A DNA stretch of 37,059 nucleotides from an uncultured Eggerthellaceae bacterium (GTDB lineage Bacteria > Actinomycetota > Coriobacteriia > Coriobacteriales > Eggerthellaceae), in assembly GCA_947626665.1 (NCBI GenBank), contig CANQTB010000001.1:1-37059 (forward strand), in the 5' to 3' direction. Made by a program: the position numbers and the translations under genes. Under the pieces are notes generated by a model, which worked only from the letters and a program-made list of their open reading frames with translations, had not been told where the DNA came from and ran no database searches. Shown here one piece after another: positions 27,031-32,269 of this stretch (positions are counted from its first letter, which is position 1; each line of letters begins with the position of its first letter).

Positions 27031-27353
27031 CGCACTAAAGGCTCTTTCTTTCGTAGCTGTTCGCATGATTTAAGAACTTTACTATAATTCGCATCTTTCA
27101 GGGCCGACTTTGCAAGAAATATCACGTCGTAATCCTGCCAAGGGCCTCCAAGATCACGACAAAGGGAGCGTAATCGACGTTTCAGCCGGTTTCTTACAAC
27201 GGCGCCTCCAAGCTTTTTCCCCGCAATAAAAGCAACACGACCAGATTGGCCGTGTTCTACAATAAAGGTAACATAAGCAGTCTTGACGTATCTTCCCTCA
27301 TGAAATATGCGGGATATTTCGTCTTTCGATCGAATCGTTTCAATCTTAGACAC
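27027..27353 (-). CDS. rnpA: ribonuclease P protein component
   Basis: Basic RnpA-like sequence ([21 protein letters not shown]). The proposed GTG start at 27353 overlaps the rpmH stop. The track ORF extends to 27446, but that stretch overlaps rpmH. Confidence 0.8.
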
Positions 27354-27480
27354 AGAGACGCTTACGTCCCTTCGCGCGGCGACGTGCAATAACATGCCTT
27401 CCCGCCTTCGTTGACATACGAGCGCGGAAGCCATGGCATTTAGCACGTTTTCGTGTGTTCGGTTGGTACGTGCGTTTCAT
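27346..27480 (-). CDS. rpmH: 50S ribosomal protein L34 (44 aa, absent from the ORF track)
   Basis: Hand translation: [44 protein letters not shown]. Confidence 0.9.
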
Positions 27481-27516
27481 ATCATTTCCCTTTCATGACA
27501 AAAGCGTAACTGCAAA

Positions 27517-27545
27517 AGCATACTAAGCACTTTACTTCAAGTCAA
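27517..27545 (-). promoter_or_regulatory. candidate sigma-70-type promoter for rpmH
   Basis: The minus strand reads TTGACT-N17-TATGCT, ending about 36 nt upstream of the rpmH ATG. Confidence 0.45.
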
Positions 27546-27950
27546 TGAAAAAATTCATCAGCGTTGAGGGATTATACCTACGATCTTAGGGGAGCAGAAT
27601 AGCCTTTCAGGGCAGAGATCCGATACCTTTCCGTTAGCCAAAGCAGATTATTTATGAATGCTTTTCCTTACAACTGCTCTTTTTATTAAAGAGAGGTTGT
27701 TTATGGTAATAAGGGCGGTGGATATGTTGAAAACTATCGTTTGTGCTGATAAACGAAAAAAAGATATTCGCATTGAAAAGTGAAAACACCAGAGATTTTT
27801 CCATGGAGAAAAATGACTTCCTTATCTTTCCCAAGATTTATGCATTTCATCCGCTTGTTATGCCAAGACAATCAACAACCGTGCCCCAAGATTTCCCGCA
27901 CAATATCATCGGGGAATCGATCGCAGATGATATTAGTGATCGATGGACGC

Positions 27951-29576
27951 TTACAGCTCGCGAATGATATGCTTCAGCGTTTCAACCTCTTCTTGGATGC
28001 CTCGGTCTTCGCGAATAAGTTTTTCCATTACATCAACCGAGTGCATTGCCGTCGAATGATCGCGATTGAAGCGCTTGGCGATGGTGTTGAAAGGAAGATC
28101 AGTCATCTGGCGACAAAGATAAATTGCGATCTGGCGCGGTTGCACTATTTCCTTTGCACGTGAAGGGCCTATGAGGTCTTTATGGGAGATCTTGAAGAAT
28201 GATTCAACTTCCTTCTGTATATCCTCAACAGTAAGGGTATGGGAAAGCGCGGGGGTGAAAAAGCTTTCGAGCACCATCCTCACATCCTCAACGCCAGGGT
28301 TTGGCTGATGGAAAAATTCCATATGATAGATAACTTTTGTAATGGCACCCTTCAGTTCTCGAATATTCGAACCCGAGTTTTCTGCGATATAAAGTTGGAC
28401 AGATTCGGGTATTTGAAGATTGGGCTTATCATCATTGATGCGATATTGGTTGATGAAGCTTTTGATGATGCCAAGCTTTGTTTCAACCGACGGGGGTTGA
28501 ATGTCCACGATTCCGCCTTGCGAAAAGCGTGATTGATATCGTTCATCGATGTCGATGTTCTTTGGAGCGCGGTCGGCTGAAAGCACCACTTGTTTTCCCC
28601 AACCAATAAGTTTATTGAAAACCTCGAACACGATTTCCAGTGTCTGGCGTTTTCCTTGAAGTGACTGAATATCGTCTATAAGGAGAATGTCCGCCTGTTG
28701 GTAACGTGTTTTGAAGTTCTTGAAGGATGATTTCTCTTTGTCGTGAGCGATAGATGCTTCGGTAAAATCATTGAGTAGATCGGCTGAGTCTACATAGACC
28801 GTTGTCATGAGAGGCGAGGTCTCATCAATATAGTTTTGTATTGCCCTGAGCAAATGCGTTTTCCCGAGGCCGCTCTTTCCATAGATGAAAAGGGGATTCA
28901 AGGCGGTACGACCAGGATTTTCCGCCACATCGACAGCCATTGAATAAGCCATGCGATTGGAATCGCCGATGACGAAGTTTTCAAACGTCAGCTGAGCTGT
29001 TGGATTGATAGTGCCGCCAAACATCGTATTTTTCTGCATTGACTCTTTGAAATGCTGATCTATTGGTGTGTTCTTACGTTCAGAGAGCACTTTTGGATCA
29101 TCATCTTGCAGCGGATTGCCTCTTTGCAGCTGGCTAAGAGATCCATCATTGTTTGACGCCGAGTTGGCCGAGGGGATCGGCTTTTCCTGAACCTTGTTAC
29201 CAGAGGATGGAAAAGCATTCTGCTGGGCCGCTGATTTTTCAGGTGAGTTTGTCGTAGTGTTTTGAGAAACAGGAGCTGACATTGTTGGATCAACTTCAAT
29301 GAGAACCGTGAAATCTACCTGATAAAGCTCCTTGAGGGCATTCTTAATGAGTGAAAGATAATGGCGTTCGATCCACTGCTTCATAAAATCATTTTCCGCA
29401 GTGAGCATGAGAAACCCCTCGCTCATCGCCTGAGGACGAAGACGAGAGAAGAACGCGATGATCTGACTTGCGTCAACTTCCTCACGTGATGTAATGGAGC
29501 TGCAAACACGTGACCATTCTTCATTGAGGTTTTGAAAATCAACCATAGTTCTACTCACTTTATAATCTGAAAGCAT
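27951..29576 (-). CDS. dnaA: chromosomal replication initiator DnaA
   Basis: Walker A GKSGLGKTHLL, LLIDDIQ, and DnaA signature region FNRDHSTAMHSV. Long Ser/Asn/Gln-rich domain II. An alternative ATG lies at 29546. Confidence 0.95.
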   Translation of the reverse strand: MLSDYKVSRTMVDFQNLNEEWSRVCSSITSREEVDASQIIAFFSRLRPQAMSEGFLMLTAENDFMKQWIERHYLSLIKNALKELYQVDFTVLIEVDPTMSAPVSQNTTTNSPEKSAAQQNAFPSSGNKVQEKPIPSANSASNNDGSLSQLQRGNPLQDDDPKVLSERKNTPIDQHFKESMQKNTMFGGTINPTAQLTFENFVIGDSNRMAYSMAVDVAENPGRTALNPLFIYGKSGLGKTHLLRAIQNYIDETSPLMTTVYVDSADLLNDFTEASIAHDKEKSSFKNFKTRYQQADILLIDDIQSLQGKRQTLEIVFEVFNKLIGWGKQVVLSADRAPKNIDIDERYQSRFSQGGIVDIQPPSVETKLGIIKSFINQYRINDDKPNLQIPESVQLYIAENSGSNIRELKGAITKVIYHMEFFHQPNPGVEDVRMVLESFFTPALSHTLTVEDIQKEVESFFKISHKDLIGPSRAKEIVQPRQIAIYLCRQMTDLPFNTIAKRFNRDHSTAMHSVDVMEKLIREDRGIQEEVETLKHIIREL

Positions 29577-29671
29577 TGAATGCTTTTTCTCACTGTTTTG
29601 CGAAACAGATTATACGAGAGAAGACTTTTTGGTGGCGGAATTGAAAGAAATACTCAGGAAAGTTTATTTGG

Positions 29672-30478
29672 TCACTCAAGAAAACTTTTTGCAACCGCTT
29701 TTCCCTCATCAGTAAGTGCACGTTTTTTCCCGACACGTTTTACCAGCCCTGCTTCCTCAAGCTTCGAAAGCGTTTGATGAGTGCTGGAAAGAGCCACTTT
29801 GGTGAGATTCGAAAGATCTGTTACTCCAAGCTGGCCCTCCTGATAGAGGAGGGGAAGAAATTGTTTTGCATGAGCAGAAAGAAATGGTGTTGATGCATAA
29901 ACGGCATTTGAGGGATGTTTCGGTGAAGATTCTCTTTCCATTTCCGGAAGAGGGGAGGGTATCTGGTCGTGAAAGGGAGTGAGGCTGATGGTGACGACAG
30001 AGCCCGTGTTGAGATTATCTTCAAGGGTGATCATCCCATTTGAATAATCCATGTATTCCTTTACATAGGGAAGGCCGGAGCCAACACCGCGGATATAGCG
30101 TTTCATAGGTTCGGTTGCTGAGGTGAAACCCGGGCGCTGAGCGTTATCTTTGTCTTCGATGCCCGGCCCCTGATCGGCAAAACGGATAGTGTTTCCCTCT
30201 CCGATGATGGAAACAACAATTTCCTGGAATCTTGCATGGATGAAATTTTCAGCCACCTCGCGAATAACGGTGTAGGGGATTTTTCCGCCTTGCAGACGGG
30301 CGTTCTCATAAACGGATGTCGAGAGCTTTTCGATAAATTCCACCGTATGGGCAGGAGGTATTTCGATTACACGTGGCACTGAGCGAAGGTCGTCATATAC
30401 CGCAATACGAGCAGTTTGCGAGACGAAATCGAACGAGGAATCACGTGATTCTTCTTGGTTTATTATCGTTTTTTCCAC
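29672..30478 (-). CDS. GHKL (Bergerat-fold) ATPase-like domain fused to a C-terminal winged helix; function unknown
   Basis: 268 aa. GTG start with AGGAGG 7 nt upstream. N-box-like EVAENFIHA, G1-like ADQGPGI, G2-like GVGSGLPYV. C-terminal GVTDLSNLTKVALSSTHQTLSKLEEAGLVKRVGKKRALT is MarR/ArsR-like. No DHp/His-box is visible. Confidence 0.75.
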   Translation of the reverse strand: MEKTIINQEESRDSSFDFVSQTARIAVYDDLRSVPRVIEIPPAHTVEFIEKLSTSVYENARLQGGKIPYTVIREVAENFIHARFQEIVVSIIGEGNTIRFADQGPGIEDKDNAQRPGFTSATEPMKRYIRGVGSGLPYVKEYMDYSNGMITLEDNLNTGSVVTISLTPFHDQIPSPLPEMERESSPKHPSNAVYASTPFLSAHAKQFLPLLYQEGQLGVTDLSNLTKVALSSTHQTLSKLEEAGLVKRVGKKRALTDEGKAVAKSFLE

Positions 30479-31165
30479 GTGATTCCTCCTTTCCTCCTCT
30501 AACGTAGTGAAGCCTCATGCCACTGTCTTCAGCTTTTCCTCATAACGAGTCGTTCGCGATACATGGTTTTCAATATTGTCTCACTGTACAACTTTCTTTA
30601 GCTTTCAAAGTTATCAACATTTTATTCATAAAAAGTGGAGAAAGTTGAATTAAAACGAAAAAGTCCTTTCGTCGAGAAAATGCTTTGGTGAAAAACTTTC
30701 AAATTTTTTCTTGACTTTTCAATCATCTTCGGTTTCGCCTGATCGTCGCACGGAGTTAAAAGGAATAGCACGAATGCTGCCTGGAAAGAAAGCAGAATTG
30801 CAAAAAACAAGGTATTGCAATTTCGTAAAATTAGGTTTTCCCAGTTCAATAACGAAATATTGAAAAATGTGTTTTTCTGGGATTATTACTGTTTTCACAA
30901 GCAACCAGCACTAATTTTGAAACACACCGTGGTTTCCCCTTATTTATCCACGTCTAATTCTGTGTAAATGAAAAGTTATCCACTTTATCCACAATTTCAG
31001 ATGGGAGTTTTAAACTTCTTTCATCTTCAAGAGAAAGTTGAAAGCGAAAATTTTCATAAATTATGAATATTCGTCATATTTTCAGCTTTCACTTTTTTCA
31101 GCTTTCACTCAGGATAACCCCTTTAACGGGATACAATAGCAAAAACAAAGAGAAAGGTCGTTCCC
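30479..31165. other. oriC: probable oriC (687-bp AT-rich non-coding region at the strand switch)
   Basis: It contains the consensus DnaA boxes. Every gene from 22196 to 30478 is on the minus strand and every gene from 31166 onward is on the plus strand. An AT-rich stretch at 31045-31080 is a candidate unwinding element. Confidence 0.7.
30944..30993 (+). promoter_or_regulatory. cluster of three same-orientation DnaA boxes
   Basis: TTATCCACG at 30944-30952, TTATCCACT at 30976-30984, and TTATCCACA at 30985-30993 (the last two abut). A one-mismatch box, TTATCAACA, lies at 30611-30619. Confidence 0.8.
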
Positions 31166-32269
31166 GTGAAAATAAGCATCAATAAATCCGAACTTCTCAA
31201 TGCCCTTTCAATCGTTTCAAAAGGCGTCTCGGCGCGTTCAACGCTTCCGGTGCTTTCGGGAATACTTCTCGATGCATCGGGGGACGGCATTACCATGCAG
31301 TCATCCGATTTGGAACTATCGGTGAAATATCGTGTAGCGGCATTGGTAGAAGAGGAAGGCAGAGCGGTTTTGCCGGGTAAATACTTCCTCGATATCGTGA
31401 AGAACCTTCCCGACGCAGCGGTAGCGATCGATACGAATATTGAAAGCGCCCATATCATTGGAGGGGGTGCCTCCTTTTCCATCAAAATACTCAATGCGGA
31501 AGATTTCCCTGCGTTTCCCGTTGTAGAGCCTGATCAAGTAGTTGAGCTTCCCTATGAGGAATTTTGCAAGATGGTAAAGCGCGTGGTGAAGGTGGTTTCG
31601 CGTGATGAAACGCGAGCGATTCTCACGGGCGTGCTGATTTCTGTCAATGGTGGAAAAGTTCGCATGGTCGCCACCGATTCATATCGCCTTGCCCTTACTG
31701 AATCTGAACTTCCCGAGGCGAACGTCGATGCATTTCAGGCTGTCATTGCGGGGAGTTTCTTAAGCGAGCTTACGACGCTGCCAAAAGGTGCTTCGGTTTT
31801 AACGCTTGGCGTTGCGGAAAACCAAATCATCGTGACTTGCGGCGATACCGTCATGATCAACCGGAGAATAGAAGGGAACTTCCCCAATTACCAGCAGCTT
31901 CTCCCAGAAAGTTCGTCTATGAGGGCAACAGCCGATCTTGAGGAGCTAAAAGCCAGCATCAGGCGTTCTTCATTGTTGGGCACGTCTGCAACGCCGGTGA
32001 AGCTCGATTTCAATGTAGATAGCCAAACGTTGCTCATCACGTCGAATGTGTTGGATGTGGGGCATACCGAGGAAACGCTTTCGTGTGAGATCACGGGAGA
32101 GGACGAGGTTGTCGCCTTTAATTCTTCCTATGTGCTCGATGGGCTTGCGGCGATCAATACGGAGAAGGTTCATATCGAGCTGATCTCCTCATTAAAGCCG
32201 GGAATTTTCCGTGCTGATGCGCCAGAGAATTATCTGTATCTGGTCATGCCGGTGCATATTTCCTCATAA
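31166..32269 (+). CDS. dnaN: DNA polymerase III beta sliding clamp
   Basis: GTG start. N-terminus MKISINKSELLNALSIVSKGVSARSTLPVLSGILL. About 367 aa with a three-domain layout. Conserved position. Confidence 0.95.
   Translation: MKISINKSELLNALSIVSKGVSARSTLPVLSGILLDASGDGITMQSSDLELSVKYRVAALVEEEGRAVLPGKYFLDIVKNLPDAAVAIDTNIESAHIIGGGASFSIKILNAEDFPAFPVVEPDQVVELPYEEFCKMVKRVVKVVSRDETRAILTGVLISVNGGKVRMVATDSYRLALTESELPEANVDAFQAVIAGSFLSELTTLPKGASVLTLGVAENQIIVTCGDTVMINRRIEGNFPNYQQLLPESSSMRATADLEELKASIRRSSLLGTSATPVKLDFNVDSQTLLITSNVLDVGHTEETLSCEITGEDEVVAFNSSYVLDGLAAINTEKVHIELISSLKPGIFRADAPENYLYLVMPVHISS

Follow-up and report, generated by a model that had tools for sequence, protein, structure and literature searches.

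A candidate controller of chromosome replication encoded directly upstream of dnaA in Coriobacteriia

In a 37,059-nucleotide stretch of DNA from an uncultured Eggerthellaceae bacterium (contig CANQTB010000001.1; referred to here as the window), the open reading frame at positions 29672 to 30478 of the minus strand, which we call T, encodes a 268-amino-acid protein that joins a GHKL ATP-binding domain to a winged helix. The ATP-pocket residues of the protein are intact, its gene is paired with dnaA in a near-invariant and often translationally coupled arrangement, and a DnaA-box cluster lies upstream of it. Its sequence and gene context make T a strong candidate as a new factor controlling chromosome replication. 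The reading that we tentatively favor is that T is an ATP-dependent DNA-binding regulator that is cotranscribed with dnaA and acts on the dnaA promoter/oriC region; in it, we infer from these features that T binds DNA, which DNA it targets, how ATP affects it, and what regulation results.

The T reading frame begins at a GTG codon and ends with a stop codon at 29672 to 29674, and direct reading of the sequence places a Shine-Dalgarno motif, GGAGG, at 30485 to 30489 of the minus strand, 6 nt ahead of the start. A first-pass annotation had placed the gene directly upstream of dnaA, at oriC, and this position was verified: dnaA (541 amino acids; 27951 to 29576, minus strand), recognized from the open reading frame list and from synteny as the downstream partner of T, follows after a spacer of 95 nt (29577 to 29671, minus strand). 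A minus-strand scan of this spacer found no terminator-like hairpin; a TATAAT hexamer lies within it at 29609 to 29614 of the minus strand. The rpmH gene (27346 to 27480, minus strand) is downstream of dnaA in the inverted layout of the window, and dnaN (31166 to 32269, plus strand) is divergent from T-dnaA here because the block consisting of the DnaA boxes, T, and dnaA is inverted. An Rfam search of the whole window returned no structured-RNA family at the gathering score. Homologues of T number 4064 at an E value of ≤1e-3. The only database labels for the protein are "ATP-binding protein" and "histidine kinase." A separate search for homologues that started from the Lancefieldella protein gave near-identical L. 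parvula sequences only and is silent on taxonomic breadth.

AlphaFold2 (AF2) models and Foldseek delimit a Bergerat-fold ATP-binding domain at 29969 to 30430 of the minus strand (residues 17 to 170). The strings from which such a fold had been proposed in the first-pass annotation are all present on the minus strand, namely, the N-box EVAENFIHA (30233 to 30259; residues 74 to 82), the G1 box ADQGPGI (30158 to 30178; residues 101 to 107), and the G2 box GVGSGLPYV (30062 to 30088; residues 131 to 139). In alignments of the family, E74, E77, N78, H81, and A82 of the N-box are invariant or almost so, and D102, G104, and G106 of the G1 box and G131, V132, G133, G135, and P137 of the G2 box are invariant without exception; the pocket residues N78, D102, G104, G106, G131, G133, and G135 are invariant in two alignments with relatives that are 34 to 40% identical overall. 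Pfam HATPase_c matched residues 69 to 166 with an E value of 5e-8 and 33.8 bits, above its gathering cutoff of 26.4 bits, and matched all of 25 diverse family members (best E value, 8.6e-14). The AF2 models show an alpha/beta sandwich with a pLDDT of 85 to 86, and a pTM of 0.80 when the domain is modeled in isolation. The Bergerat-fold assignment was thus upheld by a profile match above the gathering cutoff, invariant pocket residues, and the modeled sandwich.

The absence of a histidine phosphotransfer domain, also claimed previously, agrees with our searches, in which no HisKA-type Pfam family matched at an E value of ≤1. The modeled residues 1 to 65 instead form a beta-hairpin (strands 23 to 27 and 36 to 40), which is a conserved part of the ATP-binding domain and in which A26, Y28, D29, and P35 are invariant, followed by one helix (residues 45 to 62); no invariant histidine is present. 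Like the catalytic (CA) domains of sensor histidine kinases (PF02518; KinB 3D36, EnvZ 4KP4, CpxA, and HK853), T has an alpha/beta sandwich fold that carries N, G1, F-like, and G2 boxes; the Foldseek E values for these matches are 1.7e-7 to 1e-4. In contrast to those kinases, T has no DHp/HisKA domain, sensor, transmembrane part, or adjacent response regulator and carries in their place the winged helix and the family-specific N-terminal hairpin and helix. A classical histidine kinase was ruled out, as there is no DHp domain, phosphoacceptor histidine, or response regulator nearby. With the isolated N-domain as the query, Foldseek matched histidine kinase CA, BCKDK, and PDK domains at a probability of 1.00. 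By sequence comparison and modeled fold, the domain is nearest to kinase-type catalytic domains (histidine kinases and BCKDK/PDK). The label "ATPase" is not established for T; given this proximity, T could just as well be a kinase or serve purely to sense nucleotides.

These similarities bear on a serious, if unlikely, alternative, in which T, tethered to DNA, would act as a protein kinase or partner-switching factor on DnaA or another initiation factor and not on transcription. By analogy with the action of SpoIIAB on sigma-F and SpoIIAA, and with the same low probability, DnaA would be the protein that the GHKL domain binds and/or phosphorylates, while the winged helix held T at the origin. 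The best sequence and fold matches of T, which are the CA domains of KinB, EnvZ, CpxA, and HK853 together with BCKDK and PDK, favor this alternative; so does the resemblance of E74-x3-N78 to the Glu/Asn pair used in catalysis by SpoIIAB and the GHL enzymes, and the invariant residues of the N-terminal hairpin could form a partner-binding surface. SpoIIAB and RsbW have in common with T a stand-alone kinase-type GHKL domain of about 150 amino acids without DHp; in all of them the domain has the E-x3-N motif, and its N-box helix is preceded by an N-terminal strand and a further helix, whereas T differs by its added linker and winged helix. Against a kinase acting on DnaA, T lacks a DHp domain, no STAS antagonist or sigma factor was found in the gene tables of the T loci examined, the SpoIIAB model TIGR01925 scored 20.3 bits against a cutoff of 135, HATPase_c_2 matched 0 of 25 family members, and we know of no DnaA phosphorylation system of this kind. 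Membership of T in the SpoIIAB-type anti-sigma kinases was rejected on the same grounds, with scores below curated cutoffs and no partners, so that SpoIIAB serves as a mechanistic analogy only.

The ATP-binding domain is followed by a linker (29882 to 29968, minus strand; residues 171 to 199) that is predicted to be disordered (pLDDT, 47 to 55); in aligned relatives it can be as short as about 10 or as long as about 300 residues, and it is often rich in proline and glutamine. The C terminus (29675 to 29881, minus strand; residues 200 to 268) is a winged helix-turn-helix of the MarR/IclR/TrmB/Csa3 type, modeled as three helices and a beta-wing with a pLDDT of >90 over residues 200 to 267. G218, L240, K252, and G259 are invariant in the alignment, and R253 and T256 are almost so. 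HTH_IclR matched this region with an E value of 1.9e-5 and 24.8 bits (Pfam cutoff, 22) and was found in 20 of 25 family members; matches to MarR, TrmB, ArsR, and Csa3-type domains were weaker, with the Pfam MarR, TrmB, and HTH_5 scores falling slightly under their cutoffs. The HTH_IclR match above the cutoff and the confident winged-helix model bear out the MarR/ArsR-type winged helix that the first-pass annotation had claimed for the C terminus. Together, the profile matches and structure models confirm a predicted architecture in which a disordered linker joins a histidine kinase-type GHKL ATP-binding domain to a winged helix.

The winged helix supports the regulator reading, since it is closest to the Csa3, CasR, Lrp, and MarR types of ligand-controlled transcription factors. 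It is of the same subtype as those of Csa3/CasR and the Lrp/MarR/TrmB regulators (PDB profile E value, 6e-5; PADLOC E values, 2e-5 to 5e-5), and both share an overall logic in which a winged helix comes after a domain that binds a nucleotide or ligand; the sensor is a CARF domain or another fold in those proteins but a GHKL domain in T. The winged helix of T has neither dimerization helices like those of MarR nor an IclR-type effector domain, which leaves no evident way to form a DNA-binding dimer and counts against the regulator reading. A defense system component was rejected, the PADLOC matches (Csa3/CasR) being limited to the winged helix.

A winged helix with no dimerization element of its own would also suit an ATP-operated architectural factor at the origin, a reading that we regard as very unlikely. 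Here, ATP-driven dimerization of the GHKL domains, by analogy with MutL, GyrB, and MORC, would join two winged helices on long linkers, and T would, at the same very low probability, connect the two DnaA-box clusters on either side of the T-dnaA region by a bridge or loop. The T motif E-V-x-E-N-F-I-H-A resembles E-L-V-E-N-S-L-D-A of MutL, a MutL N-terminus profile matched residues 71 to 130 with an E value of 8.7e-5, the linker is disordered and variable in length, and, in line with bridging, two DnaA-box clusters lie upstream of T and another lies between dnaA and dnaN. On the other side, T has no transducer domain or GHL-type lid, its G2 box and the C-terminal half are of the histidine kinase type, for which we know of no ATP-driven dimerization of CA domains, and the MutL equivalog models scored 17 to 18 bits against cutoffs of 180 to 391, over residues 68 to 112 only. 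In the GHL ATPases (MutL, GyrB, Hsp90, and MORC), moreover, the GHKL domain is not continued as it is in T, where a disordered linker and winged helix follow. Membership of T in the MutL/GHL group was ruled out, because only the N-box helix matches and the transducer domain is absent.

The first-pass annotation could not place T in any named family, and likewise no NCBIfam model matched at its curated cutoff. Pfam and NCBIfam searches, and Foldseek with the AF2 model, gave no confident match to an unrelated family, such as might have argued against a regulator. The top full-length Foldseek match was DIP2311 of Corynebacterium diphtheriae (PDB 3LMM), with an E value of 4e-7 over 280 to 296 columns covering both domains; DIP2311 also had the highest TM-score for the N-domain (0.65, with a root mean square deviation of 3.8 over 169 columns). 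The two proteins share the domain order, GHKL and then winged helix, but DIP2311, whose function is uncharacterized, consists of AlbA_2, HATPase_c_4, and a C-terminal winged helix and is 14 to 16% identical to T, which has neither the AlbA_2/Schlafen-like N-terminal domain nor a sequence match to HATPase_c_4. PF22168 (DIP2311-like) scored 13.5 bits on T against a cutoff of 27, and we are aware of no reported link of DIP2311 to dnaA. A mobile element or horizontally transferred cargo was also rejected: there was no phage match, the divergence of T is core-like, and plasmid matches were weak, partial, and confined to the GHKL domain, the one inspected (Subdoligranulum) being an unrelated 155-amino-acid SpoIIAB-like gene beside hydrogenase-type genes.

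Known regulators of DnaA or oriC include YabA, SirA, Soj, Hda, DiaA/HobA, SeqA, and AdpA and the response regulators MtrA, CtrA, HP1021, and ArcA. Pfam, NCBIfam, and PDB searches revealed no homology of T to any of these, and a full-text literature search (dnaA operon, Coriobacteriia, and GHKL with DnaA) yielded no description of the T family. The role proposed for T, that of an accessory factor at the origin or the dnaA promoter, is like theirs, and T would resemble the origin-binding response regulators MtrA, CtrA, HP1021, and ArcA in pairing a switch domain with a winged helix. To our knowledge, none of the known regulators is the leading cistron of a dnaA operon and none has the GHKL fold.

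The regulatory proposal of the first-pass annotation leaned on the location of the gene and would have been undone by a lack of conserved linkage with dnaA in relatives; this linkage proved near-invariant, also outside Coriobacteriia. In 78 of the 80 Coriobacteriia genome loci, dnaA follows T immediately and in the same orientation, and this arrangement was also found in all eight distant relatives looked up, which are metagenome-assembled genomes labeled Bacillota, Limnochordia, Armatimonadota, or Actinomycetota; T is likewise followed by dnaA, in the same orientation, in 76 of 76 informative metagenome loci with GC contents of 27 to 72%. Inversions around the origin kept T and dnaA together as one block in 14 loci distributed over at least three blocks of the DnaA tree, and the inversion in this window likewise carried both genes as one block. 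The divergence of T follows that of DnaA, DnaN, and RecF (Spearman correlations, 0.78 to 0.86), with a median identity of 50% for T versus 45% for DnaA and 47% for DnaN; T evolves at a core gene-like rate, about that of DnaA and DnaN.

Synteny alone is no proof of a replication role for T, because gene order at the origin is conserved for many unrelated genes. In all loci examined, T has dnaA as one neighbor and rpmH/rnpA or dnaN as the other, and rpmH, rnpA, yidD, yidC, jag, gidB, and recF are equally syntenic in the same loci; the conserved origin-proximal order of the unrelated rpmH, rnpA, yidC, jag, and gidB counts against the regulator reading. It favors instead the view that the link to dnaA is positional only and that T, as a transcription factor or kinase, acts elsewhere, e.g., on stress or metabolic genes. 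In that case, T would have been kept beside dnaA through stable origin-proximal gene order and a shared promoter; we rate both this explanation and the positional view itself as rather improbable. The view gains from a search for T operators that came up empty (see below) and from one locus (L042) in which T is inverted away from dnaA with its reading frame intact. Even there, however, T abuts the DnaA-box region and dnaA. The linkage also holds across the full GC range of 27 to 72% and several phylum labels, it outlasts several independent inversions with breakpoints flanking T-dnaA, and the gaps between T and dnaA often leave no room for an independent promoter, all of which argues against a merely positional link.

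The gap from T to dnaA has a median of about 80 nt in Coriobacteriia and of 24 nt elsewhere, where several loci have 4-nt overlaps. Gaps of -4 to +42 nt suggest the fixed-stoichiometry cotranslation that is typical of interacting partners, in keeping with a kinase or partner switch directed at DnaA. Such close coupling of translation characterizes complex partners, here T and DnaA, at least as much as an operon-leading repressor, and to that extent it weakens the regulator reading. By analogy, T could act as an "anti-initiator," a kinase-type GHKL partner switch that shares its mRNA with DnaA, is made in a fixed ratio to it, and binds or phosphorylates DnaA at the origin; we think this version unlikely.

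The T gene and the divergent dnaN are separated by a 687-bp oriC-like spacer (30479 to 31165) that contains the putative T promoter region and 6 of the 27 DnaA-box-like 9-mers of the window, in two groups. The proximal group (30471 to 30619, plus strand) comprises TTTTCCACG at 30471, which overlaps the T start codon, TTTTCCTCA at 30534, and TTATCAACA at 30611. The distal group (30944 to 30993, plus strand) comprises TTATCCACG at 30944, TTATCCACT at 30976, and TTATCCACA at 30985, the last a perfect match. A DnaA-box cluster stands ahead of T throughout. Across 68 loci, DnaA-box-like sites peak at -700 to -500 and at -300 to -100 from the T start, and their density is 3.5/kb versus 0.59/kb overall; the additional cluster between dnaA and dnaN has been mentioned above. 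Searches of the upstream region for enriched 8-mers, 7-mers, and palindromic dyads did not reveal a T-specific operator, which counts against the regulator reading. The elements enriched there were DnaA-box variants, among them the clade consensus TTTTCCACA and a head-to-head pair, TCCACA-NN-TGTGGA; a phased TGAAWA repeat, which may represent weak DnaA boxes; and a CCAGTTCAA element. None was assignable to T.

For T as an ATP-dependent regulator, we propose the following mechanism. T would head a conserved operon of two genes, T-dnaA, with a promoter inside the DnaA-box cluster. Its histidine kinase-type (Bergerat) module would most likely serve as a nucleotide sensor and self-association domain, connected by the flexible linker to the MarR/TrmB/Csa3-like winged helix, which would bind DNA. 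When the N-domain binds or turns over ATP, the oligomeric state of T or the availability of the winged helix would change, and with it the occupancy of sites ahead of T-dnaA, in the DnaA-box/promoter region. As a result, DnaA synthesis, the access of DnaA to the origin, or both would be tuned to the nucleotide state of the cell. A sensing role of this kind has against it that the usual job of kinase-type GHKL domains is substrate phosphorylation and not sensing.

What is understood of DnaA control comes from a handful of model bacteria, which rely on lineage-specific factors; we are aware of nothing comparable for Coriobacteriia, which include the drug-metabolizing gut species Eggerthella lenta and oral and vaginal Atopobiaceae, or for Limnochordia-like Bacillota. 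A near-constant leading position ahead of dnaA is among the strongest genomic signatures for a replication-linked gene. If T is no regulator, it would still be a widespread core gene of uncharacterized function. If T does regulate DnaA or the origin, it would represent a new regulator family, the first of its kind on the GHKL fold. Were the anti-initiator version correct, T would be an ATP-gated brake or license on replication that takes the place of Hda, YabA, or SirA, and this control would be common to Coriobacteriia and many uncultured monoderm lineages. T offers a concrete, testable entry to replication control in Coriobacteriia and Limnochordia-like Bacillota.

The protein under study, T (268 aa), is encoded on the minus strand at 29672..30478, with a GTG start codon that follows a GGAGG ribosome-binding site. 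Pfam matched HATPase_c to residues 69-166 (E 5e-8; 33.8 bits against a cut-off of 26.4) and an IclR-type winged helix to residues 213-249 (24.8 bits against a cut-off of 22), with MarR, TrmB, and ArsR slightly under their cut-offs on the winged helix. The first-pass annotation's quoted GHKL strings (residues 74-82, 101-107, and 131-139) and C-terminal winged helix are thus borne out, as is its statement that T is without a histidine phosphotransfer domain, since no HisKA-type domain was detected. It had placed the protein in no named family, and NCBIfam returned solely sub-threshold, domain-level matches (histidine kinases, SpoIIAB, and the MutL N-terminus). Its domains make T a HATPase_c protein and also one of the MarR/IclR/TrmB winged-helix class.

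A search of 5.8 billion proteins yielded 4064 homologues at E<=1e-3, the closest being ~60% identical proteins of Eggerthellaceae, named "ATP-binding protein" or "histidine kinase" at source; a set of 1.84 billion cluster representatives (50% identity) yielded just 554 matches at E<=1e-3, 276 of them reaching E<=1e-30. Full-text literature searches found no description of the family. T is a discrete, conserved family without a name. Alignments showed a variable N-terminal tail followed by a conserved hairpin and helix (A26, Y28, D29, P35), a GHKL core with invariant E74, E77, N78, H81, A82, D102, G104, G106, G131, V132, G133, and G135, a linker of ~10 to 300 residues that is P and Q rich in many members, and a winged helix with invariant G218, L240, K252, and G259. 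The linker grows from ~10 to ~300 low-complexity, P/Q/G/Y-rich residues in family proteins P0268 (554 aa), P0229, P0205, and P0117 and likewise at relatives' loci L015, L020, L023, and L024; both domains are still conserved in these members.

The AF2 model of full-length T (pLDDT 85) contains two independent domains with a disordered linker between them. The top whole-chain structural match in the PDB was DIP2311 of Corynebacterium diphtheriae (3LMM), an uncharacterised protein that, like T, has a GHKL-like domain followed by a winged helix; histidine-kinase catalytic (CA) domains and BCKDK/PDK came next. For the isolated N-domain (pTM 0.80), CA domains were best by E-value (1.7e-7) and DIP2311 by TM-score (0.65). 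A profile search of PDB sequences matched the KinB CA domain (4.6e-7), the Csa3 winged helix (6e-5), the MutL N-terminus (8.7e-5), and SpoIIAB (3e-3). T failed the defining tests for a two-component histidine kinase (no HisKA-type domain), for a GHL ATPase (MutL sub-threshold in NCBIfam), and, at the sequence level, for a DIP2311-like protein. The check for a confident match to an unrelated family, such as an anti-sigma kinase, gave only sub-threshold SpoIIAB, and the defining tests for that type also failed. Of 25 diverse members, 25 matched HATPase_c and 0 matched HATPase_c_2, _3, _4, or _5. In the Pfam, NCBIfam, and PDB searches, T showed no homology to known DnaA or oriC regulators. It is a kinase-type GHKL domain with an intact ATP pocket, tethered to a winged helix.

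T had been described as lying next to and upstream of dnaA, and the two genes are separated in the window by 95 nt, in which the coding strand shows no terminator-like hairpin. We scanned species-representative genomes and searched the best 80 of at least 347 candidate stretches encoding a T relative with the window's DnaA, DnaN, RecF, RnpA, and YidD. These 80 loci were effectively all from Coriobacteriia, including Slackia, Gordonibacter, Raoultibacter, Adlercreutzia, Senegalimassilia, Ellagibacter, Atopobium/Lancefieldella, and environmental MAGs, and in 78 of them T lay immediately 5' of dnaA on the same strand. One exception was a truncated contig. The other, L042 (CAVABR010000087.1), is the sole locus separating the two genes: T alone is inverted, still adjoining the DnaA-box region and dnaA, so that both are divergently transcribed from a common DnaA-box spacer, and rpmH, rnpA, and yidD come after T. 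Coriobacteriia-type origin contigs also turned up in bins named Oscillibacter, Bacteroidaceae, Agathobacter rectalis, and Oscillospiraceae (L015, L023, L050, and L051), probably through binning contamination of public assemblies.

Starting from a distant member, a further search retrieved relatives with the labels Firmicutes/Bacillota, Limnochordia, Armatimonadota, and Actinomycetota, MAG taxon labels being unreliable; the arrangement was rnpA/rpmH< | >T>dnaA>dnaN in all 8 looked up, and their gaps measured 4-42 nt. In Limnochordia/Firmicutes-like loci, the gyrB product is ~950 aa with the intein-splicing domain PF14890 (L089 9793-9861; L091 9825-9831). A metagenome scan with a profile made from non-Coriobacteriia members gave 80 best loci (GC 27 to 72%), and dnaA was next after T in 76/76 with room downstream. 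Each scan covered the best 80 loci only, and unlinked paralogues are possible lower in the rankings. Almost without exception T is linked with dnaA, within Coriobacteriia and beyond. The minimal gap had a median of 24 nt in metagenome loci (IQR 9-42; several 4-nt overlaps), and the gap in Coriobacteriia had a median of ~80 nt (<=150 nt in 88%); these lengths are approximate because relatives' start codons were assigned heuristically. The translational coupling of the two genes, together with the kinase-type fold, favors a rival reading, to which we give a minor share of the probability, that T is a DNA-tethered kinase or a partner of the DnaA protein.

Across 83 loci, median identity to the window protein was 50% for T, 45% for DnaA, 47% for DnaN, and 42% for RecF, and the divergence of T tracked that of the other three (Spearman 0.78-0.86); in this T behaves like a core gene. 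No phage homologue was found; plasmid matches were weak, partial, and confined to the GHKL domain, and the one inspected was an unrelated gene. A role as a defence-system component was rejected, with no defence-system match reaching past the winged helix. That the association with dnaA is positional only appears unlikely.

DnaA-box-like 9-mers were 6-fold enriched 5' of T (3.5/kb versus 0.59/kb overall) and similarly enriched between dnaA and dnaN. Among 68 non-redundant Coriobacteriia loci, they peaked at -700..-500 and -300..-100 from the T start, and the preferred box was TTTTCCACA or TTTTCAACA, not TTATCCACA; in the window they form groups at 30471-30619 and 30944-30993. Head-to-head TCCACA-NN-TGTGGA occurred <=250 nt 5' of T in 14/68 loci versus 0/1272 control windows. 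One 9-mer, TTTTCCACG (30471-30479), overlaps the start codon (GTG) of T; the opening codons, GTG GAA AAA, are the reverse complement of a box, possibly by chance. By these positions, T is interposed between dnaA and the cluster of DnaA boxes found ahead of it in other bacteria, and that DnaA-controlled promoter presumably drives T. The T-dnaA unit, widely conserved and 3' of a DnaA-box cluster, has T as its first cistron.

Two further elements lie upstream of T. A conserved aCCAGTTCAa element (window 30841-30848, plus strand; ~20/68 loci, at -285 to -430 relative to the T start) sits between the two box peaks, mainly on the strand opposite T, with an A-rich stretch before and a TATA-like hexamer after it, in both genome layouts; it could drive a divergent transcript, be associated with a DUE, or bind a protein. 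In the 200 nt 5' of the T start (68 loci), the T-coding strand is 17-fold enriched in the hexamer TGAAWA, with spacings peaking at 9-13 nt and ~21 nt and at least 3 copies in 22/68 loci versus 1/1665 control windows (examples are L003, L006, L029, and L032). The hexamer is sparse at 30572-31100 in the window. In some loci the array is flanked by a TACAAT -10-like element and the T start; it could consist of weak DnaA boxes or of iteron-like operators.

The usual order, in most loci, is yidD<rnpA<rpmH< | >T>dnaA>dnaN>recF. In the window and 13 loci, the order is recF<dnaN< | >T>dnaA>rpmH>rnpA, an in-place inversion of the DnaA boxes-T-dnaA block, which is why dnaA and dnaN are divergent in the window (at 27346-32269) and in 14 loci. 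These 14 (L001, L007-L009, L011, L021, L026, L028, L030, L031, L043, L047, L055, and L079) are the 13 plus L001, whose contig stops just after T. On a rough, single-gene DnaA neighbour-joining tree, loci with the inverted layout form at least three separate blocks, suggesting that the inversion happened repeatedly, T staying with dnaA each time. The inversion joins the box clusters 5' of T and 5' of dnaN into a single 620-930-bp spacer and leaves the dnaA-rpmH spacer poor in boxes. In the window, the latter (27481-27950, 470 bp) has 1 DnaA-box-like site and neither a convincing ORF nor an Rfam match; the inversion may, for example, have brought the rpmH promoter with it into this spacer.

Conserved linkage with dnaA, whose absence would have counted against the first-pass annotation's proposal of an initiation or dnaA regulator, was found in all three sets of loci. 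The most economical reading, a tentative one, is that T binds DNA in a nucleotide-dependent manner and regulates the dnaA promoter/origin region. Switching and self-association would fall to its GHKL domain; no dimerisation element is present in the winged helix itself. The main weakness of this model is that no operator assignable to T was found. An ATP-driven bridging factor seems improbable. One-component regulators likewise combine a switch domain with a winged helix. The genomic signature of T is unusual and strong.
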